Virus record (IMG/VR): IMGVR_UViG_3300045988_183163
Strand: one strand, 5' to 3'
Origin: a virus
Length of the DNA: 64,000 bases
Every line of letters starts with the position of its first letter. Within the stretch, counting starts at the first letter, position 1. The notes under the pieces are model-generated. The model was not told where the DNA came from. It did no database searches and saw only the letters and a program-made list of their open reading frames with translations. Made by a program: the position numbers and the translations under genes. Positions 3,439 through 45,775 of the stretch are shown here, in pieces.

Positions 3439-3805
3439 ACCATCTTTGCTCAGCTAGGTCTTAATTAGACCGTGAACGAATGAACCATAGTCAGCTGTAT
3501 ATTGTTTGGCTTTGGCTTCGTGGCTGCTGATGATGGCGTCTACTCGCTAAATTATGTTTCGAATCATGGTAAAGTCCTCCTTGAAGGTTTGTAATTGTTA
3601 TACGGTATATATAAATACGCTCTTAACGCGGCGTTCGCGTGCAGGAACATTTATATAAACACATTGACGCTGTGTACGCGTGCTATGTTGATTAGCATAG
3701 CAATTCTATATAATCAGCCTTTCCTTCGGCTGTCAGAAGTCCACATTCCGTGGGATGAATCTATATTAAACGCAGAAAATCTGCGGGAATCCTCAAAAAG
3801 AAAAA

Positions 3806-4917: not shown

Positions 4918-7244
<2,327 letters not shown>

Positions 7245-7334
7245 TTACCTCACATATGTATTGTTTTGTTTTTTTGTGAACCTCCCCACCTAAGCCTTAC
7301 GGCTATAGACGGGGCGTGCGCTCTTCATGGTTCA

Positions 7335-8724: not shown

Positions 8725-9579
8725 TCATCCATTGCTACAGTCACCAAACAGCAAATTATATGCTTTTTCGATTTCAGAATCAGACATGGCCTTCCCTTTT
8801 TCTTCAATGCTGTGCAGAATTAGAGTCTTGTCGCTCACATCCAGTTTGTTGCGATTTTCGTCCTGCGCAAGATACTCTTTGATTTCGGACCACTGCGCAT
8901 CACGCTGGTTCAGAGCGTCAACGTTCTGGACACAGAACGGGTACTCACTTTGCGGCATAGCACCGGAAAGGTATTTGGTATCGTCGCAATACATCTTGAT
9001 AAGCCGGACAATATAGTTCCGCTCTGCTTTGGTTCTCGCAGTCAGAATGTTGCTTGCGCTCTGGTACTTGTAGTTATCCCCAACAGCTTCCAACGACTCT
9101 GCAATCTGTCGAAAACTCAGCATTTCGTTTGTGGCCTTGTCATGCTGCGACACGGTGGAAGCATAGTATCCTTGTTCCGTTTCGTTTGCTTCTACCACGG
9201 CAGCGAGATTCGAGTCAATATGGATGAGCCGTTCACTGTTATCCCCTTGCGCACGAATTGTGTTGTTCACTTTCGCAATCCAACTGTCAGTTTCCGTAGC
9301 ATCATCGCCCGCATAGAGGTAGGTTACAATATCCGGGTTAGTAGGGTTCGGAAGTTCCGCACAAGCCAAGGTCAGATTTCGCCCGTATTCTTTTGCCTGA
9401 AGGTACATGTTCGGATAATCGTCTTGTATTGTCTGAGCGATTGCCTCAACCTCGGCCTCGTCTTTTTCAATGACAAGGCCGACAGTGGCTACCTGCTCTT
9501 CAATGTTGAGCTGCTTCAAAATATCCTCAAGGTCGAATACAATAGCTTCTTTGTTGTTTGTATAGAATCGGATTTTCAT
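8725..9579 (-). CDS. hypothetical protein
   Basis: Start at MKIRFYTNN with RBS AGGAGGAAAATCT. Confidence 0.5.
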   Translation of the reverse strand: MKIRFYTNNKEAIVFDLEDILKQLNIEEQVATVGLVIEKDEAEVEAIAQTIQDDYPNMYLQAKEYGRNLTLACAELPNPTNPDIVTYLYAGDDATETDSWIAKVNNTIRAQGDNSERLIHIDSNLAAVVEANETEQGYYASTVSQHDKATNEMLSFRQIAESLEAVGDNYKYQSASNILTARTKAERNYIVRLIKMYCDDTKYLSGAMPQSEYPFCVQNVDALNQRDAQWSEIKEYLAQDENRNKLDVSDKTLILHSIEEKGKAMSDSEIEKAYNLLFGDCSNG

Positions 9580-9662
9580 AGATTTTCCTCCTGGCAACAA
9601 TAAAAAAGGCAGGCCCTCGGTTGGAAGGTCTGCCAAAAAACAGTTTGAGAATTGCAAAAAGG

Positions 9663-9863
9663 TCATTGTGCGGCTTTGACAGCTGCGTTTATCATTGTGT
9701 AGGCAATATCCAGGAGCCGAAACGCAAGAACTCCAAAAGATAATGCTACCAGCAAAAAGCAAAACACAAATTTTTGTTTGTTCTCACCCTGGAAATAGTA
9801 CATTCCAAAGCAGGACGCGATGAGAACGCAGAGAAACACAACGACCCAAATAATATCAGCCAT
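9663..9863 (-). CDS. small membrane protein
   Basis: 66 aa, two TM helices. Its ATG overlaps the stop of the upstream gene (ATGGCTGA), suggesting translational coupling. Confidence 0.4.
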   Translation of the reverse strand: MADIIWVVVFLCVLIASCFGMYYFQGENKQKFVFCFLLVALSFGVLAFRLLDIAYTMINAAVKAAQ

Positions 9864-10473
9864 TGTCCTGATTTTGATTTTGCTGAGTCGGCTGGGTCTT
9901 GACTTCAGCAGGAGCATTCGGAGTTTGATACTGAACATTCTGGCTCGGCTCTTTGGGAGTTTCGGGAGCCTGGTACTGAACAGTACTGGGGTTGTTCTGC
10001 TGTTCGGCTTTCTTTTCCTCATATTTGGTCTTGAGCTGAGAATAGGAATAGCCATCCTGCGGGATACCGTGATACTCATAATGGCCGAAAGCAAGAATCA
10101 TGTTGAACACCGGATTCAGAAGGCAAAGACCAATCGTGAAACCAATACCTTCACCGAACGCAACAGCTTTCTTGTAGTTGGTGATAGCACCGATGATGAG
10201 AGCAACGACCAGGAACAGATTGCCGAACAGCGGGATACCGGACAAAAGGCTCAGCACGACCGGAATCAGAAACAACCAGCCGTTCCCCCAGTAAATGTTG
10301 AATTCGATGTAGTTGCTGTAGAACGGGACGATGGATGCCCAGCCAGGCTGCCCGGCCTTCTCAAAAATTTTCCAATTGGCGACGATTTTGAGCACAAAAT
10401 ACGCTACCACCAGAAGAATCACCGTATAGAGCATACCGCCCAAAAGATTCAATGCGCTGTAAGAATTATACAT
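9856..10473 (-). CDS. membrane protein with four TM helices and a Gln/Pro-rich C-terminal tail
   Basis: 205 aa with four hydrophobic helices and a low-complexity QYQAPETPKEPSQNVQYQTPN tail. Confidence 0.5.
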   Translation of the reverse strand: MYNSYSALNLLGGMLYTVILLVVAYFVLKIVANWKIFEKAGQPGWASIVPFYSNYIEFNIYWGNGWLFLIPVVLSLLSGIPLFGNLFLVVALIIGAITNYKKAVAFGEGIGFTIGLCLLNPVFNMILAFGHYEYHGIPQDGYSYSQLKTKYEEKKAEQQNNPSTVQYQAPETPKEPSQNVQYQTPNAPAEVKTQPTQQNQNQDNG

Positions 10474-10507
10474 TTTATATCCTCCTCTTTCGGCATATGA
10501 AGCCGGA

Positions 10508-10837
10508 TTATTCCTTCACTAAGTTCTTTGCCTGTCGCTGCCGCTCTGCAAGTTCTTTGCCGCGTCTGACCAGTTCCGCATATTGCTCTTCGGTCAGCTT
10601 GCGAGGCGGCTTGATTTTGACCCATTTCTTGGGCATATCTGCCTCCATACACCAGTCCTCATCCCGCGTGATTTTAACAGCATCAGGGTACTCTTTGGCA
10701 AGCTCTTTTAGCTGTTCCATACGAGCTTTGTTGCAGGTGTAGTAGGATGCTTTCTTCTCCGCATCGTTGAACGTGATGATGGTTTCGCGTTCCCAGGGTC
10801 TATCAGATGCCTGCGTGGCCACTTTTTTATCGGGCAT
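10508..10837 (-). CDS. hypothetical protein
   Basis: 109-aa charged ORF. Confidence 0.45.
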   Translation of the reverse strand: MPDKKVATQASDRPWERETIITFNDAEKKASYYTCNKARMEQLKELAKEYPDAVKITRDEDWCMEADMPKKWVKIKPPRKLTEEQYAELVRRGKELAERQRQAKNLVKE

Positions 10838-10851
10838 GATTTTTTCTCACC

Positions 10852-11067
10852 TCAATCGAATAAAATTGCCGACATAGCAGGGCCTTCGAAGATATACCCG
10901 CTCGCCTCGGCCCATTTCGGCGTCATGAGCTTGCCATTTGCTTTCACAAGCACCATCTTCCGAGCAGAGGTATTCAGGAATTCCGCCGGAGCCCAGTTAT
11001 TTCGCACAACGACGATAGCGTTGTCGTCCGCGTTCTCAAGCATATGCTTCAGCTCTTTTACCGTCAC
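10852..11067 (-). CDS. hypothetical protein
   Basis: 71-aa ORF. Confidence 0.4.
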   Translation of the reverse strand: MTVKELKHMLENADDNAIVVVRNNWAPAEFLNTSARKMVLVKANGKLMTPKWAEASGYIFEGPAMSAILFD

Positions 11068-11071
11068 CGTG

Positions 11072-11368
11072 TCACCTCCCGTTCAACACATCATCCAGTG
11101 CCTGCAAGAAAACTCTGGATTCCTCATTGATTCCGCCGCGACACAGAACTTTCGCAATATCATCAAATCCTACCAAGTACATATTTTCTTCACCCATGTA
11201 CCCTTGCGGCCAGGGAACCGCATAGTAGTTGTGCGGAACAGAACTTGTGTCATAGCCGACCACAATATATTTCTGGTCTGCAACATTTTTCACCGTCAGG
11301 ATAGTCCCAAGCGGTAACGCGTCTTTCATGGAATGAGTAGTTGCAGGCATGATTCTCTGAATTTTCAA
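11072..11368 (-). CDS. hypothetical protein
   Basis: 98-aa ORF; promoter copy at 11390..11417 lies upstream. Confidence 0.45.
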   Translation of the reverse strand: MKIQRIMPATTHSMKDALPLGTILTVKNVADQKYIVVGYDTSSVPHNYYAVPWPQGYMGEENMYLVGFDDIAKVLCRGGINEESRVFLQALDDVLNGR

Positions 11369-11389
11369 AACAGCACCTCCCTAATTTTC

Positions 11390-11417
11390 ATTTTATGAGA
11401 CTCGCACATTTGCGCAA
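11390..11417 (-). promoter_or_regulatory. conserved promoter family copy (TTGCGC-N16-TAAAAT)
   Basis: Minus strand reads TTGCGCaaatGTGCGAGtctcaTAAAAT. Confidence 0.45.
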
Positions 11418-11539
11418 GGAAACTGAAAACAAAAAAAGCGGCCGCTCCAAAAGGAACGACCGCAAAGATACGAGTCAGATATTATTCATTGAGCTGGGCA
11501 AGGATACCCGTGACTTCAGTCATGGGAGGAATTGTTCCT

Positions 11540-12802
11540 TCACCTTCTTTCTGTAATATAATTTGTTGCGACTTCTAGTAGCCGCATTTTTTTGTAGGAC
11601 GCGCTATTAGAAACAACAGTACCGTCCAATTTTTTAAGAGCGAAGTATCCAGAAGTTCGTCTGCCTGTGATAAAGCATTCTGAGCCATTATAGGATACTT
11701 TGTCCCAAAGACGATAACCCTTTACGGTGTACGGAGCTTGATTAGCCTTGCGTATACCACCTTTTAGGATAGTTGCTTTGTGCAGCTGTCTGTTATGGTG
11801 GCGTATAGCCTTCGTGTAGTAGCAAGTATCGCAAGGTATGGCCAATGGGTTCTTGCTAATGCAGCGTGCATCGTTGGTGTGACTTTTAGGAATACTATGC
11901 TTCTCACGCAAGTACTTGGTTATGTAGCCATAAGTCCCTTGTACCGGAATCTTCAGCTCTTTAAGCAAGCGTTCCATAAGTGTCTTACGCATAACCCCCA
12001 TAAAAGCTGCATCTTTGAGAGACCTGCCACGTTTTTTGCCGTCAAGTGTTACTTTTCCAGCGTGTAGAGCTTTATGGCAAGCTGTGCATAGCGTGATAAG
12101 GTTGTTTGGCGCATTGCCACCTGTTCTACGGGTCTCGATATGATGCACATGCAGCTTTACAGCTTTTGTTTTTGTTGGATGCGCACCGCAGCATTGGCAC
12201 GTATAATTGTCACGCTTTAACACATACTGGCGTACATTGTACTCATCGTACATTTCACCAAGCTGATAGTCTGTGCCTACCGGCAGAGGTTTACCTTCCA
12301 GCATTGCTTTTAGACGTTGTGTGTCAAACTCTGCTGTTTCTACTCTGACGAACGTAACAGGCAAAATACGACATACTCGCTTGATAAGCGTAATGTGTTC
12401 TTGAATCTTGACCTCCACTGATGGCGCTAACCAGCCCTTATGCTTGCTATGCACTCTGTTGTTGAAACGCGGCGCACGGTAACGGGTTTTGCGGTTTCGC
12501 CTGCTGCGTCTGAAAGCACGGCGTGCAGAAAGCAAATCAACCACATCATTGCGTGGAGTTGCCTCTTCGCAATAGAGTTCGTACTTTTCAGTGGCAGCAG
12601 ATATGCCAATATGTTTGCTGCCTGCATCTACGCCCAAAGTAATAGGTTGTTTGTATCCTGTACTTCCATACAGGAGCTTGATTGTAAACGGTGTGCGTTT
12701 TACAACGCATGCTTTCTTCTGCTTTAACAATAAGCGAGCCTTGCGTGGAGAGCACGGCATCAAAGGTTCGCCGTGTTTGTTAAGCACATACACATATTGC
12801 AT
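11540..12802 (-). CDS. iscB: IscB, OMEGA RNA-guided nuclease (PLMP, split RuvC, HNH domains)
   Basis: PLMP motif HGEPLMPCSPRKARLL; RuvC-I LGVDAGSKHIG; Arg-rich bridge helix RRAFRRSRRNRKTRYR; RuvC-II VRVETAEFD; HNH CQCCG...HHIE...NLITLCTACH; RuvC-III SHTNDARC. 420 aa; RBS AAGGAG. Confidence 0.8.
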   Translation of the reverse strand: MQYVYVLNKHGEPLMPCSPRKARLLLKQKKACVVKRTPFTIKLLYGSTGYKQPITLGVDAGSKHIGISAATEKYELYCEEATPRNDVVDLLSARRAFRRSRRNRKTRYRAPRFNNRVHSKHKGWLAPSVEVKIQEHITLIKRVCRILPVTFVRVETAEFDTQRLKAMLEGKPLPVGTDYQLGEMYDEYNVRQYVLKRDNYTCQCCGAHPTKTKAVKLHVHHIETRRTGGNAPNNLITLCTACHKALHAGKVTLDGKKRGRSLKDAAFMGVMRKTLMERLLKELKIPVQGTYGYITKYLREKHSIPKSHTNDARCISKNPLAIPCDTCYYTKAIRHHNRQLHKATILKGGIRKANQAPYTVKGYRLWDKVSYNGSECFITGRRTSGYFALKKLDGTVVSNSASYKKMRLLEVATNYITERR

Positions 12803-13091
12803 GATACCATGCTCCTTTCTATTTGTGTGACAGCTAATGATAAGCTGTCCTCTCCTCCGAAGAGGAGTTACTTCCGAAGAAGCTAATCCTTCCCCAAAGT
12901 TATAAGCGGTTTAATGCAGCCACACCTGTTGTCTTTACCTCAGATTTCTTTGATGTGTTGCCTTAGAGCGTGCAGTTAGGATTAACGCCGCACGGTAACT
13001 ATCTATTCGCTTATAACGGAGTGCTCGAAGCACTTAGGGTAGTCAACATATCCTTTCGGACATTTCTAAAGCGTAGACTCGCTGATGCAAG
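12803..13091 (-). ncRNA. candidate omega-RNA of IscB (located 5' of iscB up to the LE hairpin)
   Basis: 290 nt with no ORF between the LE hairpin and the iscB start. It contains several GC-rich stems (for example GGAAGTAACTCCTCTTCGGAGGAG). The position matches the known IscB omega-RNA layout. Confidence 0.4.
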
Positions 13092-13111
13092 CCCGCGACT
13101 TTAGTCGTGGG

Positions 13112-13597
13112 TTATTGACGGGAATCAGCTTTCCTGAAATCAGAAAGTTGATTCTCAGTGGAACACTGCACGAAAGGAATTCCCGTGCGCGAATTCACAA
13201 AAACGTCTGTGGTAGCAAACGCATTGCCAAAACTCATGTCACAGAAAACGACGTGAGAACTTTCGTCACCAGATGCACGGGGCGCAAAGCTGGTACATGC
13301 AAACCAATCCAATTCATCCTGCCCCTGTTCATCATAAAGATAAATGACGGGAGCCGGAATGTTGGGCGTCGGCATAGCCAGTGAGCCAACCTGCATTTCA
13401 TTGACACAGAGGTCAATGGGCGGGTTCCCGTTCTGATAATCCCATTTGGGGTATGACTGAGCCCTGATGGTGGTGTCGCCATCATCTACCTCGATGCCAA
13501 GAGCAGCGATATCGAATGGAATACCGAGCTTTTCCTTGATTTCTTCCGGGGTGAAAGTTAGGAGCTTACCGTGTTCGCCTTGGATGTAGAGTCTCAT
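13112..13597 (-). CDS. hypothetical protein
   Basis: 161-aa ORF. Confidence 0.5.
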   Translation of the reverse strand: MRLYIQGEHGKLLTFTPEEIKEKLGIPFDIAALGIEVDDGDTTIRAQSYPKWDYQNGNPPIDLCVNEMQVGSLAMPTPNIPAPVIYLYDEQGQDELDWFACTSFAPRASGDESSHVVFCDMSFGNAFATTDVFVNSRTGIPFVQCSTENQLSDFRKADSRQ

Positions 13598-13600
13598 GGC

Positions 13601-14173
13601 TTACTTTTCCTCCTTTTTCTTGTCGGCGTTCAGAATCTTTTCCAGAACGTCGTTATAAAAATCGTCAAGGAACAGACCGGTTTCTTCATCCGCTTCCGGA
13701 GCAGTGAAAACACCGTCTCCTTCAGCTGAATCCTGTACAGCGTCGAAGACACCGATTGTGCCCCTAAGTTCATCGGCCAGAAGGTCATAGCCGAGGTCCT
13801 TCACTTTTGCCGAGAGGTCAATCAGCAGCATTTTCTGCCGAAAGAACTCGTTCATATCCAAGCCAATGTAGGGTTTCGCTGCAACATTGTTTTTCTGAGA
13901 CTTTACTTTGAAAATGCCCCAGTCAAAGTTGCTGTCTGCGCCGTACATATACCCGGACGCAAGGCAGAAACCGTCTGCTGCACTGTCCTCAACGTTGATA
14001 CCGACTTCAAAATCGCTGCCGGAATCTTCATCCAGGTTAATCGCAGAGCCTGTTGCCTTTTCGTACTCTGCCTCAACGTCAGTTTTCATGGCTGCCAGTA
14101 GAGCGTTGAAATCGGTATTCTGGGAAAGCAAGTTCATGCTTTCGCCTTCCTGGTTTTTAATGAGAATGTACAT
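13601..14173 (-). CDS. hypothetical acidic protein
   Basis: 190-aa ORF with RBS AGGAGGTAAATACT. Confidence 0.5.
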   Translation of the reverse strand: MYILIKNQEGESMNLLSQNTDFNALLAAMKTDVEAEYEKATGSAINLDEDSGSDFEVGINVEDSAADGFCLASGYMYGADSNFDWGIFKVKSQKNNVAAKPYIGLDMNEFFRQKMLLIDLSAKVKDLGYDLLADELRGTIGVFDAVQDSAEGDGVFTAPEADEETGLFLDDFYNDVLEKILNADKKKEEK

Positions 14174-14192
14174 AGTATTTACCTCCTAACAA

Positions 14193-14432
14193 TCAAATCA
14201 TGCTATCAGACAATTTGTCGATAGCTGCCGTGATGGCTTCGTTTTCCATCTGAGCAATACGCTCAAACAAATGAGACCAGTCGATGGCATCATAGACACG
14301 CTTGACAAACGCATCATAGGTGCCACCGGCCTTCATCATTTCAATTTCAGATTCATAGCAGCCGGGCTCCTCAAGTATGAACTTGATATCGTCGGTTGGG
14401 TTGATTTGTATTGTTGCTTCGTACTCATTCAT
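14193..14432 (-). CDS. hypothetical protein
   Basis: Start at MNEYEATIQ (RBS GAAAGGAAATAATC). The upstream ATG sits inside the terminator hairpin. Confidence 0.45.
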   Translation of the reverse strand: MNEYEATIQINPTDDIKFILEEPGCYESEIEMMKAGGTYDAFVKRVYDAIDWSHLFERIAQMENEAITAAIDKLSDSMI

Positions 14433-14455
14433 TTTGATTATTTCCTTTCTTTTAT

Positions 14456-14492
14456 ACGCAAAAAGGCGAACCACCCAAATGGGAAGTTCGCC
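14456..14492 (-). terminator. intrinsic terminator in a promoter-proximal leader
   Basis: Hairpin GGCGAACUUCCCAUUUGGGUGGUUCGCC followed by UUUUUGCG on the minus strand; it lies downstream of promoter 14562..14590. Confidence 0.55.
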
Positions 14493-14561
14493 TAAAGCGC
14501 ATTGTTAAGTGTGCGAAGGGCAGGGTGCCTTTTCGATAACTGTTATCTATCGTACATTTTT

Positions 14562-14590
14562 GATTATAGGCCGTTCGCATAAATCCGCAA
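14562..14590 (-). promoter_or_regulatory. conserved promoter family copy (TTGCGG-N16-TATAAT), followed by a diverged ATGTACGATAGATAAC element
   Basis: Minus strand reads TTGCGGatttATGCGAACggccTATAATcaaaaATGTACGATAGATAAC. Confidence 0.5.
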
Positions 14591-14619
14591 CAAAAAACCG
14601 CCACCCAAATGGGAAGCGG
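14591..14619 (-). terminator. intrinsic terminator ending the upstream operon
   Basis: Hairpin CCGCUUCCCAUUUGGGUGGGCGG followed by UUUUUU on the minus strand. Confidence 0.5.
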
Positions 14620-14629
14620 TAATGAAAAA

Positions 14630-14914
14630 TTAAATTTCAGCGCAGAACATCGCGAGTTTCTGCCACAGCAAATAGGTGCTGTATCTCATGCGTACCTTTT
14701 CAGGAACACCAGTAACCAAACACCATTTGTGAGCAGTGGCTTTGATGCGGGGAATCTGCCTCTGTTCGGCTTCGGTAAACGTCTTGCTGTATAGTCTGCG
14801 ACGGCGTCCGGAATTCCAAAAGGCTCCTTGCATCGTTTCGCAAATCAGAGCGTACGCCAAATAGCTTTGGGCTTCTTCGTGAGTCAATGTAACCATCGTT
14901 TTCATGGCTGTCAC
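14630..14914 (-). CDS. hypothetical protein
   Basis: 94-aa ORF; its ATG overlaps the upstream stop (ATGA). Confidence 0.4.
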   Translation of the reverse strand: MTAMKTMVTLTHEEAQSYLAYALICETMQGAFWNSGRRRRLYSKTFTEAEQRQIPRIKATAHKWCLVTGVPEKVRMRYSTYLLWQKLAMFCAEI

Positions 14915-15495
14915 CCTGCCTTTCTCTCATTGCGAGCCATGTGCAATGCATAATCAAGAGCATCGGGGTCATCGGCCAAGAATTTGGCTTCCCGAATCGT
15001 ACCAAACTTCGGGTGCTTCACGATTGGATATTTATCAAAGACTTCCCGTTCCTGAATGAGCGTGCCATTCTTGTATATTACCTCAACGTTATGGGACGGA
15101 ACCGCGTAATGACGGATGCGGTCACATTCGCCCTTATAGTTGATAGGAGTGATACAGCCGATAGGCTTTCTCTCTTCCATCCCTGTAACGGTGACTAGAA
15201 AAGCCTTAATGGTTCGAGCTTCATCTTCCGTATTTTCATCGTAGTACTTGAATGTATTGAACATCGAAGTACCTACTTTGTAAGCATCTTCTTCGAGACA
15301 AAGATACGTTCCGTTGTAACGGCAGAACCAGAGCATTGGCACCGCTTTTCCAGTTTCCTGTGCTTCTTTTGCATAGCGCTTGAAAATCTTTATGTCCAGC
15401 TTGAAATCCTCGGTGTAATGCTTCACCGTGCTTTTCACGATGAGTTTCAGGAAATCACAGATGGAAATAGCGGTCATAGTCATATTGGAAGTCAT
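14911..15495 (-). CDS. hypothetical protein
   Basis: 194-aa ORF. Confidence 0.5.
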   Translation of the reverse strand: MTSNMTMTAISICDFLKLIVKSTVKHYTEDFKLDIKIFKRYAKEAQETGKAVPMLWFCRYNGTYLCLEEDAYKVGTSMFNTFKYYDENTEDEARTIKAFLVTVTGMEERKPIGCITPINYKGECDRIRHYAVPSHNVEVIYKNGTLIQEREVFDKYPIVKHPKFGTIREAKFLADDPDALDYALHMARNERKAG

Positions 15496-15510
15496 AATAA
15501 AATCTCCTTT

Positions 15511-20461: not shown

Positions 20462-20515
20462 TGTTATGCTCCTTTCACACTTCGGGTATTTTTTATTTTT
20501 GGTGGGATTTCTTAC

Positions 20516-20553
20516 TGACGCAAGCCCACGACTTTAGTCGTGGGTTATTGACT
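20516..20553. repeat. solo IS200/IS605-type subterminal hairpin (LE-like remnant)
   Basis: TGACGCAAGCCCACGACTTTAGTCGTGGGTTATTGAC is nearly identical to the IscB-element LE at 13085..13120. No transposase or nuclease gene is attached. Confidence 0.5.
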
Positions 20554-23831: not shown

Positions 23832-24203
23832 ATGGACGCGACAATGCAGACGGTTCTCCGGCTCCATGAGCAAGGTATACCTAGAAGAACCATTGCCAAA
23901 CGTGCAGGCATCTCATTGCAGAAAGTGCGCAAAATACTGATTACGGCCGGGGCCTGGTCAGATGAAACATCAGAAAAAATCGGGAAGCTGCGTGCGAACG
24001 GTATGTCAGTTCCTGAAATTGCAGAAGAATTGGGTGTAAAAACCAATACTGTTTGGAGCTATTTGCCATACAGCAAAGGCATGTATAATCAAGAATATCC
24101 GACCATTAACGCCATTCGAGTCCGAAATTCGAAGCGAAAAGCAAAAGAAAAAGCCCTCACCTGCACGGATACCGCACAGAATGAGGGCAGTGGCGCTTGC
24201 TGA
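23832..24203 (+). CDS. helix-turn-helix DNA-binding protein (two HTH-like segments)
   Basis: IAKRAGISLQKVRKIL and MSVPEIAEELGVKTNTVWSYL. It is the only plus-strand gene in the first 50 kb. Confidence 0.45.
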   Translation: MDATMQTVLRLHEQGIPRRTIAKRAGISLQKVRKILITAGAWSDETSEKIGKLRANGMSVPEIAEELGVKTNTVWSYLPYSKGMYNQEYPTINAIRVRNSKRKAKEKALTCTDTAQNEGSGAC

Positions 24204-24278
24204 AGGATTCGAACCTTCGGACAGTCTCCCATCGTCGGTTTTCTGGACCGATTTCATCAACCACTCGAACAAGCAAGC
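24191..24278 (-). tRNA. type-II tRNA, Ser-like, with non-canonical anticodon loop CCAGAAA (C33; anticodon reads AGA)
   Basis: Acceptor GCUUGCU/AGCAAGC, G73, CCA encoded, T arm GAAGG-UUCGAAU-CCUUC, long variable arm, anticodon stem UCGGU/ACCGA. Confidence 0.5.
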
Positions 24279-24282
24279 AGAT

Positions 24283-24371
24283 GGCGCAGAGGGTGAGATT
24301 CGAACTCACATGCCGCGATTTCCGCGACGGCAGCTTAGCAAGCTGCTGCCCTACCGTTAGGCGACCTCTGC
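24283..24371 (-). tRNA. tRNA-Ser(GCU)
   Basis: Acceptor GCAGAGG, D stem 3 bp, anticodon arm GCAGC-UUGCUAA-GCUGC, long variable arm, T arm GUGAG-UUCGAAU-CUCAC, G73, CCA. Confidence 0.75.
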
Positions 24372-24403
24372 ATAATGCACCTTTTAACGTAGGTGCGACG
24401 TAG

Positions 24404-24478
24404 TGACCCCTGGCAGACTCGAACTGCCGACTTCAGCTTGAGAGGCTGGCGACTTGGACCAACTTGTCGAAGGGGCCT
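24404..24478 (-). tRNA. tRNA-Glu(CUC)
   Basis: Overall E. coli tRNA-Glu-like architecture; anticodon loop CUCUCAA; T arm GGCAG-UUCGAGU-CUGCC; A73; no CCA encoded. Confidence 0.65.
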
Positions 24479-24481
24479 TAT

Positions 24482-24565
24482 GGTGTGCCGGGCTGGATTC
24501 GAACCAGCGAACCGAAACGGAGCGGTTTTACAGACCGCCTGCTTTAACCTCTTGCATACCGACAC
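24482..24565 (-). tRNA. tRNA-Tyr(GUA)
   Basis: Type II; anticodon arm GCGGU-CUGUAAA-ACCGC; long variable arm; T arm GCUGG-UUCGAAU-CCAGC; A73; CCA. Confidence 0.75.
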
Positions 24566-24568
24566 ATA

Positions 24569-24644
24569 TGGTGCTCCCGGCCGGAATCGAACCAGCGACA
24601 CGCGGTTCTTCAGACCGCTGCTCTACCAACTGAGCTACAGAAGC
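24569..24644 (-). tRNA. tRNA-Phe(GAA)
   Basis: D arm GCUC-AGUUGGUAG-AGC; anticodon arm GCGGU-CUGAAGA-ACCGC; T loop UUCGAUU; A73; CCA. Confidence 0.8.
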
Positions 24645-24645
24645 A

Positions 24646-24725
24646 TGGTGACCCGTGTGGGTTTCGAACCCACAATAACCTCCGCCGTGAAAGGGCGGCA
24701 ACTCTACCAATTCGTCCAACGGGCC
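24646..24725 (-). tRNA. tRNA-Glu(UUC)
   Basis: Anticodon arm CCGCC-CUUUCAC-GGCGG, the same as E. coli tRNA-Glu; T arm GUGGG-UUCGAAA-CCCAC; G73; CCA. Confidence 0.65.
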
Positions 24726-24754
24726 ATATATAGCCGCAATCCTGCGGCGAGGGT

Positions 24755-24976
24755 TTATGCGATGACAAGGATGTCATCTATCTTGGTATCCAGCATCGCT
24801 GCCAATATCACAAGGTTGTCGATGGTGGGGAGCGCTGTTCCAGCTTGCCATTTGGCAACTGCCTGCGTGGATACGCCGAGTGTATCTGCCACATCTTTCA
24901 CCTTGATACCTGCTGCCTTTCGCAGTGTCTTAATGTTGGCACCAGTTTTCTGAATATCAATAGTAGGAACGTTCAT
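24755..24976 (-). CDS. XRE-family helix-turn-helix transcriptional regulator (Cro/CI-type)
   Basis: 73 aa; IKTLRKAAGIKVKDVADTLGVSTQAVAKWQAG matches the HTH_3 pattern. Confidence 0.7.
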   Translation of the reverse strand: MNVPTIDIQKTGANIKTLRKAAGIKVKDVADTLGVSTQAVAKWQAGTALPTIDNLVILAAMLDTKIDDILVIA

Positions 24977-25344
24977 TTTTTCTTGCTGCCTTTCTGTATT
25001 GCAGGCAACAAAAAAGCTGCCTGCCGAAATCTCGACAAGCAGCTATGACATGCAGTTATCGCTTAGAAGACGCACCGCATCTGTACATGGTCTGTTTTTG
25101 CCTGTCGAGGAGTATGAGAAATAAAACTGCGTTCATAAGAGCTGAACTCAGATTCATAACTATACTCATACGACATTACATTAACAGTGTTGCACAGCAT
25201 TTTGGGGTATCTCCTTTCGTTTCGTTCTGATATTATTATAGCATGTTTTTGCACATTTGCAATCAACTTGTGGTTTAGTTTTTTGGTCTGTATACTCTCC
25301 AAAACAAAAAGCCGCCTCTTATGTGAGGACGGCTTTTCTTATTG

Positions 25345-25420
25345 TGGCAGGGGTAACACGACTCGAACATGCAACACGCGGTTTTGGAGACCGCTGCTCT
25401 ACCACTTGAGCTACACCCCT
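25345..25420 (-). tRNA. tRNA-Trp(CCA)
   Basis: Anticodon arm GCGGU-CUCCAAA-ACCGC; D arm GCUC-AAGUGGUAG-AGC; G73; CCA. Confidence 0.75.
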
Positions 25421-25427
25421 ATATAGA

Positions 25428-25492
25428 TACTCCAGTTGGGAGTCGAACCCAGAGTAAAACGGGACTTAAAGCCGCCGCGTTTGCCAGTTTCG
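25428..25492 (-). tRNA. aberrant tRNA-like sequence (acceptor, D and T arms fold; no regular anticodon arm; loop region contains UUUAAGU)
   Basis: Acceptor GCUCCAG/CUGGAGU (G1-U72), D arm GCG-AAACUGGCAAA-CGC, T arm CUGGG-UUCGACU-CCCAA, A73. The anticodon region GGCGGCUUUAAGUCCCGUU cannot form a 5-bp stem. Confidence 0.35.
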
Positions 25493-25505
25493 CCACTGGA
25501 GCATA

Positions 25506-25581
25506 TGGCGGGTTGTACAGGGTTTGAACCTGCGGCCCACGGATTAACGGTCCGTTGCTCTACCAGCTGAGCTAACAACCC
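25506..25581 (-). tRNA. tRNA-Asn(GUU) with C33 (loop CCGUUAA)
   Basis: Anticodon arm ACGGA-CCGUUAA-UCCGU (E. coli Asn has CUGUUAA); T arm GCAGG-UUCAAAC-CCUGU; G73; CCA. Confidence 0.65.
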
Positions 25582-25610
25582 ATAAATGGCAGTTGTTGTA
25601 CTGCCGGACA

Positions 25611-25688
25611 TGGTACTCCCCGAGGGATTCGAACCCTCAAAACGGTGCGGTTTGAGCGCACTGTGTCTGCCAATTTCACCAGAGGAGC
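25611..25688 (-). tRNA. type-I tRNA with anticodon CAA (Leu-like decoding, A73, short variable loop)
   Basis: Anticodon arm GUGCG-CUCAAAC-CGCAC; T arm GAGGG-UUCGAAU-CCCUC; acceptor GCUCCUC/GGGGAGU; CCA. Confidence 0.5.
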
Positions 25689-25691
25689 TTA

Positions 25692-25767
25692 TGGCGGGCG
25701 TAGCAGGATTTGAACCTGCGACAAACGGATTAACGGTCCGCCGCTCTGCCTACTGAGCTATACACCC
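25692..25767 (-). tRNA. tRNA-Asn(GUU) with C33, second copy
   Basis: Anticodon arm GCGGA-CCGUUAA-UCCGU; T arm GCAGG-UUCAAAU-CCUGC; G73; CCA. Confidence 0.65.
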
Positions 25768-25798
25768 ACAAAAGTGGCAGATAATGCTCTGCCGGGCA

Positions 25799-25874
25799 TG
25801 GTGCGCTCGCGGGAAATCGAATCCCGAACACCCCGATTAAAAGTCGGGTACTCTACCGATTGAGTTACGAGCAC
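25799..25874 (-). tRNA. tRNA-Lys(UUU)
   Basis: Anticodon arm CCCGA-CUUUUAA-UCGGG; T arm CGGGA-UUCGAUU-UCCCG; A73; CCA. Confidence 0.75.
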
Positions 25875-26138
25875 TTGTCGCGCATCTTCCGTGCCATGCT
25901 TATGGGAACACAGCTTTGAGGAATCTCACTTCCGATGCGCATGAAAGTGAGCGTTGGCCGAGAATGGTCGAGTCGAACAACCGTTGTCAGGGTGAATCCT
26001 CCCACGACTAAAGTCGCGGGCTTCCCCTCTTTTAAGGAGAGGAACTTGCTAACGAAATGGTACAGCAATCCCTCAGCAAGTAAGTCCCGAAGAACAAACT
26101 CACCGCAAGAAAGCTAATTGTCACAGTTAGCCTACATC

Positions 26139-27080
26139 TTACGCTGCCTGTGTACTGAGTTTTTTGAGCTCAGGATACAGAACTTTAAGCGTGGCAAGTG
26201 TAACTTGGATTCTACGCTCAACATCCGGAACATTAGCCGAAAACTGAGACCTTACCATCGCTGGCAAGGGTTTTAGCAACTCTCTGACAAAGTAGCGAGC
26301 GCCAATATTGTAGCTCGCACTTAGGTCGCAGTTGTATTGTTTGCCGCTTGCAAACGTTGCAAGGGCACGATTGGTTTCATCACGCTCAAGAGCACCACTG
26401 CCATCAAAGGCGAGTTTGCTTGTGCCCCAAGCGCAGATACGCGAAATCCGGATACCACAGCGGTGTGCCTTCTGTGTCACATAATCCTGTATGGAATTAC
26501 GTTTCCACATTGTCAGCTTTTGTGCTTTACTGCCGCCGTGCTTTTTGCCTGTAAATGACAAATGTTCAAAAACAATCACATCTACAGAATAAAGCACAGC
26601 AAATTCAGTAATCGCAGCAGCAACCTTTTTCGCTATATCGTTATTCAAGGCTTTGGCGTAACGCCACATAGCTGCGGCGCTGTTGGAACCGTGCTCCCTT
26701 TGCTTACGCTTGATACGGTTAAGCACATGATACAGATGGTCTTTTTCACTCGGAAAATTGATAAATTTTCTTGCAAGGACAGTTCCATCGGCAGTCATGA
26801 TGCTGCACACGGCGTCAGTATTGAGACCAAGGTCTACAGCGCAGATACGCCTGTCTTGAATTTCAGTTTCAGAGAGTTCTACCTTCTCCACGAAAGCGAA
26901 GCGGAGAAAATATTTTCCGTACTTCTTTTCGAGGGAGGGAGCGCTCTTTTCGCAATGTGACCAGTATTTCGTGATGTATTTGACATCGGTGGCACGCATT
27001 GCAATAGGAATCCAAACCCAGTCATTGTTTTTATACAGCTTCAGATAGCACTGGTTTGGTTTGTTGCTTTCCTCATACAT
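26139..27080 (-). pseudogene. tnpB: TnpB-like (RuvC-I ICAVDLGLN, RuvC-II VIVFEHL, RuvC-III NCDLSASYNIGARY), lacking about 100 N-terminal residues and the CxxC...CxxC zinc finger
   Basis: 313-aa ORF. A 400-nt gap to tnpA has no ORF of 60 aa or more, while the frame stays open upstream of the first ATG. The zinc-finger cysteines are replaced (CAWGTSKLAFDGS). Confidence 0.5.
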
Positions 27081-27488
27081 AACGGTCTTATAAAAAGCCG
27101 GGAAGCAAAATCTATCGCATTGAAGTTTTGGCTCCCTGTCAACCTTGCCGTTTGCTTCCCAGTTCTTATGGCTACTGTAGTAGCTGCTTACAGAGCCGAG
27201 TGCTGCTTGAATAGCCGCTCTGCGCAGGTAACTAGGGAACTTATAAAACTTGGCATCGAAATCATATTTAGCAGTGCTGTATTTTGTAGTATGAATTAAC
27301 TTCTCGGCAAAACTCTTTCGAGATTTGGCACCCTCTACTTTTTGAATAGAATCCCATTCTTTGTTAAATCAACCAATCAAGAAAGAAACGGCTTCGCGAT
27401 AAATCTTTATAGTATTGTCGAACATTTTCTGCTTTTTGATTTCCACAGCATAGCTGGAAGTGATTTTCACTGCGAAGCCCCCCTTTCA

Positions 27489-27869
27489 TCAGTTTCTTAT
27501 TTTTTGAGATGCAATGTATTCTTGTACTTGTTTGCGCGTGTTATCACTGACGGTTGCAATAAAGTAGCTTGGGTTCCAAAGATGCCCGCCCCAAAGTTGC
27601 TTCTTCAAGTCCGGATTGGCGATAAAAATAGCTCTTGCACTGTTGCCTTTAAGCACTTTTATCATATCCGGGATAAAATGCTGCGGTGAACACTCCACCA
27701 ACAGGTGAATATGGTCAGGCATGCATTCCATTTCTACAATATTGATTTTTATGGTTTCGGCGGTCTGCTGCAGAGACTCTTTTAGCGATTGTTCCGTTTC
27801 GTTTGTCAAAGCCTGATGCCTTACCGTCTGGCGAATCCTCGAATATACATTATGTATAATAGCATACAC
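27489..27869 (-). CDS. tnpA: IS200/IS605 family Y1 (HuH) transposase TnpA
   Basis: 126 aa; HuH motif MPDHIHLLVE; C-terminal region LKGNSARAIF...GHLWNPSYFIATV with the catalytic Tyr region. Confidence 0.7.
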   Translation of the reverse strand: MYAIIHNVYSRIRQTVRHQALTNETEQSLKESLQQTAETIKINIVEMECMPDHIHLLVECSPQHFIPDMIKVLKGNSARAIFIANPDLKKQLWGGHLWNPSYFIATVSDNTRKQVQEYIASQKIRN

Positions 27870-28486: not shown

Positions 28487-28575
28487 TGGCGGTCAGAGTG
28501 GGATTCGAACCCACGGACGTTTTTGGCGTCGCTGGTTTTCAAGACCAGTTCCTTAAACCACTCGGACATCTGACC
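28487..28575 (-). tRNA. tRNA-Ser(UGA)
   Basis: Type II; anticodon arm CUGGU-CUUGAAA-ACCAG; T arm GUGGG-UUCGAAU-CCCAC; G73; CCA. Confidence 0.8.
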
Positions 28576-30154: not shown

Positions 30155-30230
30155 TGGAGAAGGGAGATGGCCTCGAACCATCGATACCCTGCTTTGCGGC
30201 AGGTGCTTTATCCAGCTAAGCTATCCCTCC
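30155..30230 (-). tRNA. tRNA-Cys(GCA)-like with a 6-nt anticodon loop CGCAAA (U33 absent)
   Basis: Acceptor GGAGGGA/UCCCUUC, U73 (typical of Cys), D arm GCUU-AGCUGGAUAA-AGC, T arm GAUGG-UUCGAGG-CCAUC, anticodon stem CCUGC/GCAGG. Confidence 0.45.
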
Positions 30231-30260
30231 ATGATGGCGGGTCAAGCCCGCCAAATAGCG

Positions 30261-30644
30261 TTACGCAAACTGGAAGTCGCCGTACTGAGTCACGGCGCGT
30301 TCCAGGCGCAGAGGAATGGTTTTTGTGCTCTTCTGAGTGATGTCCTCGCGTGCTACCTGAGCTTCACTCACGCCAGCCGCCTGCAGGACTTCATACAGAT
30401 TGGAAGGACCAGTACCAGCATAACCACAGGTCAAGCCATTAACCTGAAGCGTGAAGCCGTGCAGATGCGGTGCCAAACCGGGAACGAAATCGAGTTCAAC
30501 AATGACCTCGTCGCTCTTGTCGTTTACACGGTTGACAGCGATGGCGCGGATGTTCCGGTTGCCAAACATTTCAATCAGCTTTTTTGCCGCTGCAGCGGTT
30601 TCTATGGTAGTCGTACCTTCAACATTGATAATTGCCTGTTCCAT
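30261..30644 (-). CDS. hypothetical protein
   Basis: Start at MEQAIINVEG (RBS AGGAAGGAG). The longer ORF-track version runs through tRNA-Thr and is rejected. Confidence 0.45.
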   Translation of the reverse strand: MEQAIINVEGTTTIETAAAAKKLIEMFGNRNIRAIAVNRVNDKSDEVIVELDFVPGLAPHLHGFTLQVNGLTCGYAGTGPSNLYEVLQAAGVSEAQVAREDITQKSTKTIPLRLERAVTQYGDFQFA

Positions 30645-30685
30645 AGAATTCATCTCCTTCCTATTATCGCTTAATTTGGTGATGG

Positions 30686-30758
30686 GGCTTGATGGCAGGT
30701 TCGAACTGCCGACCTGCGCGTTACGAATGCGCTGCTCTACCAACTGAGCTAATCGAGC
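30686..30758 (-). tRNA. tRNA-Thr(CGU)
   Basis: Anticodon arm GCGCA-UUCGUAA-UGCGC; D arm GCUC-AGUUGGUAG-AGC; T arm GGCAG-UUCGAAC-CUGCC; no CCA encoded. Confidence 0.7.
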
Positions 30759-31030
30759 ACGATAGGGTGTTTTATGCTGGTCACCCCTTGAGCGAGAAGC
30801 CAACTCGCATCCAGCACCATTCGGCAGCCACGCCGATAGATTCTGTATTGTACCCTCTTCACCGTTTTCCGGTCTTATTCGCGACTAACACCGGGACTTT
30901 CGAATACTTTCAGGCACAGCACCTGTTTGTCTATTATTTTTGAGGCTGTCTCATCGACATTCGGACAGCGGACCACAAGTGGACCATGCTCACCAAGTTT
31001 AACGTCGTGGCGTACGGTGACTGCGACGTG

Positions 31031-31105
31031 TGGAGCAAGTAGCGGGGGTCGAACCCGCGTCTCCGCCTTGGAGGGGCGGAGTATTAGCCGTTATACGATA
31101 CCTGC
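31031..31105 (-). tRNA. tRNA-Gly(UCC) with C33 (loop CCUCCAA)
   Basis: D arm GUAU-AACGGCUA-AUAC as in E. coli Gly(UCC); anticodon arm CCGCC-CCUCCAA-GGCGG; U73; CCA. Confidence 0.6.
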
Positions 31106-31581
31106 ATAAGATTGCGGGTGAACCCTCACTTAGCCCCGCCATGACATCCGTTTAGTAGGTCGTCATCCCCGGATGTCATCTTCACACCACCTGACAATCT
31201 TGCGAACCTCATCGTTGACGATACGCGAGAATCCAAGAAAGCGCTTGGGTGTTGGTCAACTTCAAATTTTGAGCCCTGTCGTTGATTCCCTGTCAAATCG
31301 GGTTAACGGTTGTCGTTGGGCTGTGTGTGAGACTGCAGCGAAACTTACCAGTTGCCGTGCAGCAATCTCGCCTTTACGGCTGTGTCGCGTCTGGATGCGC
31401 CCCGACTTGACGGGGATGCTCGTACGTTTGCATGCTTCTAAGACATTCGTCAGCAGCCGCAAGAGCCGCTGTCCGCCACCCGCCACGAGGAGGCCGCCTT
31501 AATGGGTGGCATGCTGTCCGCCAGATGTTGTGTATAGCATCGTATCATGTGATTTCGATACATCCAACGGATAGCGTCTGG

Positions 31582-31654
31582 AGCTGGAAATCGGACTTGA
31601 ACCGATGACCGACTGATTACAAATCAGTTGCTCTACCAGCTGAGCTAAACCAGC
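31582..31654 (-). tRNA. tRNA-Thr(UGU)
   Basis: Anticodon arm ACUGA-UUUGUAA-UCAGU; T arm AUCGG-UUCAAGU-CCGAU; two U-U mismatches at the base of the acceptor stem. Confidence 0.6.
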
Positions 31655-31696
31655 AAATACAAACATTAGCCAGATGCCCGGAACACGGAAACATCT

Positions 31697-31735
31697 GTTG
31701 CCCACCGTCCGCCGCGTGGAGGCTGTTTGCTTGGA
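31697..31735 (-). promoter_or_regulatory. structured motif copy 2 (stem CCGTCC/GGACGG around AGCCTCCACGCGGC, then TGGGCAAC)
   Basis: Lies immediately 5' of tRNA-Thr(UGU) on the minus strand. Confidence 0.4.
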
Positions 31736-32026
31736 CGGCTGGCGCGGAGTTACCCGCGCCAAATGGGAAATAAAGAGGTATGAAAGGAAGGATATTACTA
31801 TGAAACGGATGATTTTCACGCTTCACCTGTGTCAGCTCAAATGAAGCCATGCGACCAAGATTGGGGAAAGGAAAACCTTGATGTCTCAGGAGCCGTTCCT
31901 CTTCCTGAGAACAATTGTATTATACCATATATGTGGTATCCGGTCAATGAAAAGACACAATATATAGTGTCTAAATTGTAAACAAACATTAAGATACCAC
32001 TATATCTAGTGGTTGGGGCAAGCGCA

Positions 32027-34099: not shown

Positions 34100-34284
34100 T
34101 GTCGGTTACCTCCGTGAGCCAGTAGTCTTTGCGGCACTCTCGATAAAAAAGCCCACACTGAACTGGGTAGAACTTCTTATTTTGATTTTCTTAGATGTGT
34201 GGGAACACCTCATATACGCTGACATACAGCATCCCCGGTTTATAATCCGCATATTCTACCGGACGCTTCTGGTCGTAGGCTTTG

Positions 34285-35680
34285 ACATTGACACACTCCC
34301 ACGATTAAAATCGTGGGATTCTACTTCAACGAGGCCGCTGGCTGACCCAGTCTTACGCCTCTCGGTAACGGCATGGTGCCCCATCCGTGAGAGTATTTTT
34401 ACGCAGTGTAGCCCGTTTGAGTTAATCCCATACGGCATATATTGATAGCTGCATTGACGTCTCTTTCGTGGTGCGTGCCGCAAGATGGGCAATTCCACTG
34501 CCGCTGCTTGAGTGTGAGCTTCGGGTAGATGTACCCGCAGCGACTGCAGCACTTGCTGGATGGAGCGAAACGGTCAATTTTCACGACCTCCGTGCCACAG
34601 TTGGATGTTGTCCACTCAAGGATTTTGACAAACTCACCAAACGCTATATCATTGATTTTGCGTCCCCAGAGTTTTTGCATCCCTGCAAGATTTAAGTTTT
34701 CAATGCAGATGATAGCGTAATCCGCTATCAGTTGGTAAGCAACCTTAAAGAACCAATCGGTGCGTTGGTTACATATTTTTCGATAGATACGTTCCAACTC
34801 TTTAATTGCTTTCTTACGGTTATTACTTCCCGGCTTACAGCGTGAAATATGTCTTTGCACTCGCTGCAGCTCTTTCAGAGAGGCTTTATACCATTCAGGG
34901 GAATCTATCACGCTGCCGTCATCCAAGTTGAGGAAGTGCTTCAAGCCAAAATCCATCCCGACAGCTTTACCTGCTCGTGGAAGAATTTCATTACATTCCT
35001 CTTGGGTGACGACAAAGAGGTAGACATCACCTAAATTGTCGCGCTTGACGGTTAAGGTTTTCACTTTACCCTTCAAAGGACGAGAATCGAAATAGCGATA
35101 CTTCTTACCATTGATGGTGACGCTGCCTTTGCCGTCAAACTTATAGCCTGCCTGTTTGAGCGTGAAGCTTTTATACATCTCGCGCTTCTTAAATTTCGGC
35201 AGCGACTTCTTGGTAGGATGCGCCTTTTTCTTATTATCAAAATAGGCTTTATAGGCGCGGTCAACGCGCTCCACCACATCCTGAATAGCTTGGCTGCCAA
35301 GATTGTGCCAGTGACCCCACTTGCGGCGCTTGCAGATTTTAGCAATGTACTTTTTCAAATCATTGGCTTTAAGCGTTTTGCCATAGACCAAATAGTACAT
35401 ACGCCGCATAGCAATGCAAAAATTCCAAATCTCGGAGGCTATTTCTATCTGCTGAACAAGATACTTGTTCTTCTTGTTGTTATACAGTTTGTACTTGTAG
35501 GTTTTCATTACAAGACGAATGAGTAGTAGCCTCCTTTTCTTTAGAATCTACTATCTATGGTACGCAATTCGCACGCTTTGACAGCAAAAAATGCTGTCCA
35601 TCTTGCGGATATGCAGCGTGAATTGATTCGTTCTTAACGCCTTTCATCCCACGACTAAAGTCGTGGGTTTTCCCGGCTTG
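34285..35680 (-). mobile_element. IS200/IS605-like element carrying tnpB only
   Basis: LE hairpin CCCACGACTAAAGTCGTGGG at 35648..35667 and RE hairpin CCCACGATTAAAATCGTGGG at 34298..34317 flank an intact tnpB. Confidence 0.65.
34399..35508 (-). CDS. tnpB: TnpB (RuvC-like RNA-guided nuclease, IS605 OrfB family)
   Basis: 369 aa; N-terminus MKTYKYKLYNN; RuvC-I GMDFGLK; RuvC-II IICIENL; zinc finger CSRCG...CPSCG; RuvC-III HERDVNAAINI. Its omega-RNA is expected to overlap the 3' end and RE (about 34290..34520). Confidence 0.8.
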   Translation of the reverse strand: MKTYKYKLYNNKKNKYLVQQIEIASEIWNFCIAMRRMYYLVYGKTLKANDLKKYIAKICKRRKWGHWHNLGSQAIQDVVERVDRAYKAYFDNKKKAHPTKKSLPKFKKREMYKSFTLKQAGYKFDGKGSVTINGKKYRYFDSRPLKGKVKTLTVKRDNLGDVYLFVVTQEECNEILPRAGKAVGMDFGLKHFLNLDDGSVIDSPEWYKASLKELQRVQRHISRCKPGSNNRKKAIKELERIYRKICNQRTDWFFKVAYQLIADYAIICIENLNLAGMQKLWGRKINDIAFGEFVKILEWTTSNCGTEVVKIDRFAPSSKCCSRCGYIYPKLTLKQRQWNCPSCGTHHERDVNAAINICRMGLTQTGYTA

Positions 35681-35858
35681 TTTTTATAAAATCGACGTGA
35701 GTTTTGAACTTCTGCTCGTCACCTCCACGATGCGCTTCAATGAGTTTCCCAATCGTGACAACGTTGATTTGGTTCATGCTTTTTTCCTCTCTTTCTACTA
35801 CAATTATACTCTTCCGCTGAACTGAAATGTGATTTTTTGTCGATTGTTAGCGGAAAAT

Positions 35859-45745: not shown

Positions 45746-45775
45746 CAGCTGCGCGGACAAAACCGCGCTTTTGAG

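Follow-up and report, generated by a model that had tools for sequence, protein, structure and literature searches.

We analyzed a stretch of 64,000 nt of viral DNA (IMG/VR virus record IMGVR_UViG_3300045988_183163), hereafter called the window, in which an original prediction, made from the letters alone, had placed an intact IscB element of OMEGA type (obligate mobile element-guided activity). The element lies on the minus strand at 13119..11490, in the part of a large gut phage genome that contains the replication genes, and consists of an omega-RNA gene, an iscB gene and two hairpin ends, with no tnpA inside it. Very probably, it is an intact, non-autonomous member of the IS200/IS605 family (ISC-type) carried by a Bacillota gut phage, probably one with a host in the Oscillospiraceae. 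That the surrounding genome is phage-like, as had been predicted, was supported by PHROG matches to a DNA helicase and a DNA polymerase, by 17 tRNA genes and by relatives in IMG/VR. A megablast search with 9500..15500 against GenBank phages gave no match and no close annotated DNA relative, and the genomic context was taken from IMG/VR and metagenome contigs.

Profile searches identified the 420-aa product of the open reading frame (ORF) as IscB. It matched the NCBIfam equivalog model "RNA-guided endonuclease IscB" (NF040563, guided_IscB; 339.9 bits with a cut-off of 175, E = 1.3e-101), Pfam RRXRR (PF14239, 201.6 bits, residues 4-166) and Pfam HNH (PF01844, 34 bits, E = 3.2e-8, residues 202-248), the last of which was situated between RuvC-II and RuvC-III. 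The PLMP motif corresponded to residues 13-16 and the arginine-rich bridge helix, RRAFRRSRRNRKTRYR, to residues 94-109, and solved IscB structures (PDB chains) matched the protein with E-values of 1e-38 to 1e-30. All of the hallmarks that had been read from the translation (PLMP, bridge helix, RuvC and HNH) were thus confirmed by Pfam, NCBIfam and PDB alignments. The alignment with OgeuIscB placed the catalytic residues in the motifs LGVDAG (D59), VRVETAEF (E155), HVHHI (H220/H221) and HTNDARC (H308/D311); the OgeuIscB counterparts of D59, E155 and H308/D311 we take to be D61, E193 and H340/D343. In 57 unique relatives, D59, E155 and H308/D311 were invariant, as were the HNH residues H220/H221, N234 and H243 and four Cys residues, and the PLMP motif and the four zinc-binding cysteines were invariant or almost so. 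The ratio of nonsynonymous to synonymous substitution rates (dN/dS) between the window copy and its relatives was 0.03-0.08 for pairs with unsaturated dS. The full set of motifs and these low ratios argue that the nuclease is intact and under purifying selection. The C-terminal region presumably interacts with the target-adjacent motif (TAM). Identity as Cas9 or another type II CRISPR protein was rejected, as TIGR01865 gave 10.9 bits against a cut-off of 100 and the protein has only 420 aa; it is accompanied not by a tracrRNA but by a HEARO RNA and transposon ends, although a CRISPR array was not specifically searched for.

Directly upstream of iscB, and on the same strand, the covariance-model search suggested by the original prediction detected the Rfam family HEARO (RF02033), an RNA known today as the omega-RNA of IscB, at 12879..13119(-), with 91.6 bits against a gathering score of 83 (E = 2.5e-17, full model 1-211). 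The omega-RNA had been expected between the hairpin and the start codon, which are separated by 289 nt. Its position upstream of iscB was correct, but both the homology between element copies and the HEARO model begin at 13119, 8 nt before the omega-end hairpin, and this hairpin is therefore part of the scaffold and not upstream of the omega-RNA. The stretch between element tip and ATG was aligned for the window and 22 relatives (23 sequences, 69-93% identity to the window). RNAalifold predicted 75 pairs in this alignment, with 97.8% of cells paired and 19 pairs showing compensatory double changes. None of 500 shuffled alignments reached 19 compensatory pairs (shuffle mean 9.4), and sliding the 3' partners by 1-3 columns left only 0-6. 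Judged by these comparisons, the RNA structure is, like the protein, under purifying selection. The predicted consensus fold lacked the HEARO-model hairpin in the first 30 nt; instead, the loop-side CUAAAGU of the end hairpin (alignment columns 16-22, window positions ~13104..13098) was paired with ACUUUAG (columns 53-59, ~13072..13066), and columns 18 and 57 covaried (13 sequences with A-U, 8 with G-C). The RNA may therefore fold differently from the hairpin that the transposase reads in the DNA.

The exact boundaries could be read from alleles with and without the insertion (a slash marks the junction). The window reads …GCTGATTCCC/GTCAATAACCC…(element)…CCCAGCTCA/ATGAATAATATC…, and the empty allele …GGCTGATTCCC/ATGAATAATATCTGACTCG… was found in three contigs (L065, L066 and L074), where the joint reads …GATTCCC/ATGAATAATATC…. 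Comparison of the filled and empty alleles shows that the element is exactly 13119..11490 and that no target duplication was produced. Consistent coordinates were obtained from copies in differing contexts, whose similarity starts at 13119/13120 and stops at 11497-11481 (window positions). The insertion altered the final two codons of the upstream phage ORF, from …DSHE* to …DSRQ*, with the stop codon supplied by the element. Both IS200/IS605-type subterminal hairpins were found where they had been predicted (Table 1). The two 20-nt palindromes are mismatched at one and the same stem position; hairpins were retained in all copies, and in several relatives the hairpin sequences of both ends are identical. 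On the other strand, the element is positioned 3' of TTCAT, with one hairpin 17 nt inside that end and the other 8 nt before the second tip (…TTATTGAC/). Hairpins 17 nt and 8 nt from the tips are the geometry of the left (LE) and right (RE) ends of IS608-type elements. The hairpin next to the omega-RNA had been labelled LE in the original prediction; by the TnpA convention, it is RE, as in Meers et al. (PMC10055086). The window and 89 fetched loci together contained 106 copies with these ends, 82 of which had an intact ORF of at least 300 aa. Recurrence of the same ends, hairpins and ORF across copies shows that these features are not due to chance.

Table 1. Coordinates of the IscB element and other features discussed in the text (window positions)
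Feature	Position	Strand	Remarks
Complete IscB element, non-autonomous	11490..13119	-	1630 bp; first letters GTCAATAACCC, last letters TTGCCCAGCTCA
Subterminal imperfect palindrome, omega-RNA end (RE in TnpA sense)	13092..13111	-	CCCACGACTaaAGTCGCGGG; 8 nt from tip; conserved A·C mismatch
Subterminal imperfect palindrome, iscB 3' end (LE in TnpA sense)	11507..11526	-	CCCATGACTgaAGTCACGGG; 17 nt from tip
Omega-RNA scaffold	12803..13119	-	HEARO match 12879..13119, then 2-3 further conserved hairpins and ribosome-binding site to ATG
iscB ORF, 420 aa	11540..12802	-	Uninterrupted; PLMP, RRXRR bridge helix, RuvC I/II/III, HNH insert, C-terminal region
Target/TAM motif ATGAA (TTCAT on plus strand)	11485..11489	-	Part of target, not of element; also in empty site
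Flank that would encode omega-RNA guide	13120..13135	-	AGGAAAGCTGATTCCC; 3' end of phage ORF 13112..13597; position inferred from IscB biology
Intrinsic terminator of the phage	11438..11463	-	11-bp stem followed by T-run; 27 nt downstream of element; also beside L065 empty site
Y1 (HUH) TnpA homologue	27489..27869	-	Pfam Y1_Tnp 111.7 bits, model positions 14-121 of 121; also tblastn match; 14.7 kb from IscB element
IS605-like unit	26001..27869	-	Y1 TnpA homologue and 443-aa TnpB-like ORF
TnpB-like ORF, divergent, 443 aa	26139..27469	-	One in-frame TGA (…FLIG*FNKEWD…); RuvC-like D/E/D motifs
TnpB element	~34280..35690	-	ORF 34399..35508 with OrfB_IS605 and TNB domains; clear TnpB
TnpB element hairpins	35667..35648 and 34317..34298	-	CCCACGACTTTAGTCGTGGG and CCCACGATTTTAATCGTGGG
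Second HEARO omega-RNA	50197..50457	-	84.8 bits against gathering score of 83; without IscB; starts GTCAACAACCCCGCC

The element was widespread among related phages. IMG/VR contained 79 loci with relatives at 66-100% identity, including several contigs with two copies, and the identical protein was recorded in 170 blocks of an assembly collection; contigs read from this collection were up to 288 kb long and had phage-type neighbours, including lysozyme and NAD-dependent ligase. Approximately 40 unrelated left flanks were each followed by GTCAATAACCCACGACT, and every right end had the hairpin, ~17 nt and then ATGA. We distinguished 32 insertion sites (L011-L089), 30 of which were flanked by ATGA (ATGAA in 21, ATGAC in 7). 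At seven sites, the window site and six more, the fetched loci included both filled and empty alleles, with the same precise junction in each case, and this variation contradicts the idea that the insertion never varies. With 32 or more different sites filled in related phages, real transposition of this element family has been frequent. The ATG of the flanking ATGA opened an ORF of at least 50 aa at 23 of the 32 sites, and a Shine-Dalgarno-like motif was present in the left flank at 11 of these 23, indicating that the element is often interposed between the start codon of the next phage gene and its ribosome-binding site. Bacillota genomes, such as the complete chromosome of Owariibacterium komagatae (Oscillospiraceae), also contained this IscB element family, and there too the ends and the ATGA flank were the same.

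Several additional observations concern the sites and ends. The element end holds a long stem, GGGCAA…TTGCCC, which could draw an upstream AGGA/GAAGG near the downstream ATG. Two targets that are unoccupied in the window contained IscB elements in relatives: 9570..9593(-), CAGGAGGAAAATCT/ATGAAAATCC, is filled in L008 (as a second copy) and in L065/66/74, and 52822..52841(+), GCACTACGATGACG/ATGAAG, is filled in L024. A 45-bp mini-element in L081(-) (~3611..3655), consisting of GTCAACAA, a hairpin and TCTCCTTGCCCTAATTT and followed by ATGA, represents the two ends fused on one hairpin. In L014 and L015 (~5684..7313), the right flank of the window was joined to other left flanks, a pattern that recombination between copies, with loss of the intervening phage DNA, would produce. 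The window itself contains a solo 38-nt copy of the IscB omega end (20515..20552(-), 94.7% identical), at whose site 19 related contigs have a 250-nt orphan omega-RNA, and a solo hairpin at 59705..59724(+), CCCACGATTGAAATCGTGGG, preceded by TTGACACCT.

The left flank of the window copy, AGGAAAGCTGATTCCC, would encode the guide; its length of 16 nt was assumed from other IscBs. This sequence is unique in the window. It matched the empty allele of L065/66/74 at 15 of 16 positions, and the adjacent bases are ATGAA in the empty allele and GTCAA in the occupied one, suggesting that IscB should cut only alleles without the element. No sigma-70-like promoter was found upstream on the minus strand, and the terminator lies 27 nt beyond the element; the omega-RNA is therefore probably a read-through product with the flank at its 5' end as guide. 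The phage terminator at 11438..11463 probably ends the transcript that carries both omega-RNA and iscB. A cycle can be proposed on this basis. A Y1 TnpA acting in trans, encoded by the host or by a different element of the phage, would bind both hairpins on single-stranded DNA and move the element to a position 3' of TTCAT. Transcription running on from the phage gene upstream would then yield an omega-RNA whose 5' guide is a copy of the flank, and IscB with this RNA would cut alleles in which the flank is followed by ATGAA, sparing the occupied allele with GTCAA. Such cuttable alleles would either be left after excision by TnpA or be present on a co-infecting phage without the insertion, and their recombinational repair from a copy that is occupied would put the element back or spread it (homing).

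A possible transposase is encoded in the window. The original prediction stated that no tnpA is attached; none was indeed detected within the element, but another part of the window, 27489..27869(-), encodes a Y1 homologue of doubtful integrity, which represents a candidate trans-acting transposase. It belongs to an IS605-like unit whose RE hairpin (26001..26020) is identical to the IscB omega-end hairpin, and in a related contig (L046), an IS605-type unit is intact, its tnpA being full-length and its hairpins related. Three OMEGA-type nucleases had been counted in the window. One of the two proposed TnpBs, 34399..35508(-), is clear, but the other, 26139..27469(-), had a TNB match below threshold (18-19 bits against 26.3) and an in-frame TGA. 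The clear TnpB element has an apparent left flank of TTTAT and ends with …GTGTCAAT; its two hairpins differ in type, one being that of the IscB element and the other that of L046. This mixture of hairpin variants suggests that one transposase type may serve the whole set of IscB, TnpB and tnpA elements, as in Geobacillus. A host transposase is another possible source of TnpA, because the same IscB element family occurs in Bacillota genomes.

The earlier inventory of OMEGA components had missed a second HEARO omega-RNA at 50197..50457(-), which lacks an IscB. The ORF upstream of it runs into the RNA (…SDVNNPA*), and 58 nt after it begins ORF 48496..50139(-), a 547-aa Band_7/flotillin protein. 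In IMG/VR, this HEARO type precedes a second IscB family, mostly of 456-468 aa, in ~35-40 of 53 loci; in the window, the downstream ORF is the Band_7/flotillin gene, and the RNA was rejected as the mark of a second IscB. The orphan omega-RNA and flotillin arrangement recurs with two different left flanks in L110 and L132 (L122 ends before the flotillin gene). A mobile cassette was rejected as well, as the L110/L132 homology starts exactly at the 5' end of the RNA and continues for more than 3.4 kb to the right without a second boundary. This locus looks more like a remnant or a recombination breakpoint.

Among known systems, one close likeness is to the IscB element of Geobacillus stearothermophilus (ISGst network, PMC10055086), which is also non-autonomous and IS605-like and has a HEARO omega-RNA upstream of iscB bounded by RE, with TTCAT as TAM/target. 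Meers et al. 2023 (PMC10055086) described the omega-RNA as bounded by the transposon RE and TTCAT as the wild-type TAM of Geobacillus IscB, and the exact ends and ATGAA/TTCAT flank found here agree with that description. The catalytic residues D58/H209/H210 of the Geobacillus protein correspond to D59/H220/H221 here. In both systems, hairpin ends are common to co-resident TnpB and tnpA elements, suggesting one TnpA in trans; according to the same study, only ~1.5% of iscB genes adjoin tnpA and one TnpA mobilises many elements in trans. The TAM of GstTnpB2 is TTTAT, and the window TnpB element apparently sits after TTTAT too. The Geobacillus element differs in residing in a bacterial chromosome, whereas the present one occurs in phage genomes and, in many copies, is inserted exactly between the ATG of the next phage gene and its ribosome-binding site.

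OgeuIscB-omegaRNA (PDB 7XHT, 7UTN, 8CSZ) has the same domain order, catalytic residues and HEARO-type omega-RNA, and its published TAM, NWRRNA, is compatible with several flanks here (ATGAAA, ATGACA). It is only distant in sequence (E about 1e-36 over residues 2-346) and longer (496 aa versus 420 aa); its C-terminal TAM-reading region does not align, and the omega-RNA described here has an extra insertion in the 5' domain. Free-standing phage HNH homing endonucleases (T4 Seg and Mob) resemble the element in that a phage nuclease gene is expected to cut the allele lacking it and to be copied in by recombination during co-infection. Their target is read by protein, whereas here it would be read by a flank-copied RNA, and the present element has transposon ends and a defined 5-nt target and can reach new sites. 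IscB-like ORFs are also encoded by cultured phages (Silviavirus, Clostridium phage c-st and Ralstonia phages), with a HEARO RNA in Silviavirus. Their identity to the window protein is at most 52%, and they are mostly annotated as HNH endonuclease or hypothetical protein; as far as we found, transposon boundaries and targets are not described in their records or in related papers. A 2026 review treats homing into co-infecting phages as a theoretical extension only.

These observations bring to mind a broader possibility, which we offer tentatively and regard as somewhat doubtful: that this gut phage lineage carries a self-sustaining OMEGA network of two IscB families, TnpB, tnpA, orphan omega-RNAs and related hairpins, which would use the ATGA(A) start-codon context as target/TAM and spread between co-infecting phages by RNA-guided homing. 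If so, the network would be an RNA-programmed counterpart of phage homing endonucleases, retargeted at each transposition and able to bias inheritance or exclude rival phages, and the element end beside the downstream gene would have to tolerate or restore translation of that gene. Several points weigh against the transposition-homing cycle described above. For the window site, every empty allele found has a single mismatch with the guide, a synonymous A/G change. The window tnpA may be a truncated remnant, as the first 13 Pfam model positions (the N-terminal strand) were unmatched; a matching LE hairpin was looked for upstream of it and not found; and the hairpin of the intact L046 tnpA unit is slightly different (GATT versus GACT). 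In addition, guide length, TAM use and homing are all features that we infer.

A different emphasis is possible, in which IscB with flank-derived guides is retained mainly to destroy or convert co-infecting relatives without the insertion, in the manner of free-standing homing endonucleases acting through marker exclusion, and transposition is rare or no longer relevant. Cleavage does not need tnpA in cis. The guide is situated within a phage gene, the target allele occurs among related phages, IscB is under strong selection, related phage contigs have several copies and two IscB families, and the review mentions 'non-restorative homing' into co-infecting phages as a theoretical possibility. 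However, the occurrence of exact IS200/IS605-type junctions at 32 or more sites reflects frequent real transposition, and a benefit to the phage is hypothetical. We consider this explanation unlikely; mechanistically, it involves the same activity as the transposition-homing cycle and differs only in the level at which selection acts.

It is much less probable that the window copy is a decaying, immobile insertion sequence with a non-functional nuclease. Such a relic would fit the lack of tnpA in cis and the decayed relatives in the window (the 38-nt end fragment at 20515..20552, the orphan omega-RNA at 50.2 kb and the interrupted TnpB-like ORF), as well as the lack of an intact ORF in 24 of the 106 end copies counted across the window and fetched loci, some of them cut by the locus end. 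The copy itself is not degraded: the ORF is full-length with all catalytic residues, both ends are intact, dN/dS is 0.03-0.08, the omega-RNA scores above the Rfam gathering score and has compensatory changes, and the identical protein recurs in the 170 assembly blocks. An ordinary free-standing, protein-guided HNH homing endonuclease was suggested by the HNH domain and by tblastn matches labelled 'HNH endonuclease' in cultured phages. In the window protein, this domain is inserted in a split RuvC, PLMP and RRXRR are present and the IscB equivalog model is matched above its cut-off, and the gene is accompanied by a cognate structured RNA and transposon ends. On the strength of the Pfam domains, the equivalog model and the HEARO match, a plain HNH homing endonuclease was rejected, an identity that we find scarcely credible. 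The evidence as a whole favours an intact, non-autonomous OMEGA element.

An IscB in a phage is not new in itself, because IscB-like ORFs (up to 52% identity) and Silviavirus HEARO RNAs already occur in cultured phages, and the element is an ordinary member of its class. It leaves the view of what IscB elements are unchanged. The modestly interesting part is the population picture of many sites, whose value is that of a natural record of movement: the filled and empty sites of a single phage population, dozens of them and all exact, give the ends, target/TAM (TTCAT) and guides without experiment and agree with the Geobacillus laboratory results. Free recombination of phages during co-infection also offers a setting for a direct test of RNA-guided homing into never-occupied alleles, and screens for genome editing could include this IscB as a compact candidate of 420 aa, with a defined omega-RNA and ATGAA as its likely TAM.

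The remaining features of the window concern its RNA genes. We identified 17 tRNA genes, all on the minus strand, in three regions (24191..25874, 28487..28575 and 30155..31654); one call, 30155..30230, was odd in having a two-base 'anticodon'. The Rfam model RF02682, an HDV-like ribozyme from Faecalibacterium prausnitzii, was also matched twice, at 31659..31739(-) and 45680..45749(-), with 50 and 60 bits; one of these matches directly adjoins a tRNA.

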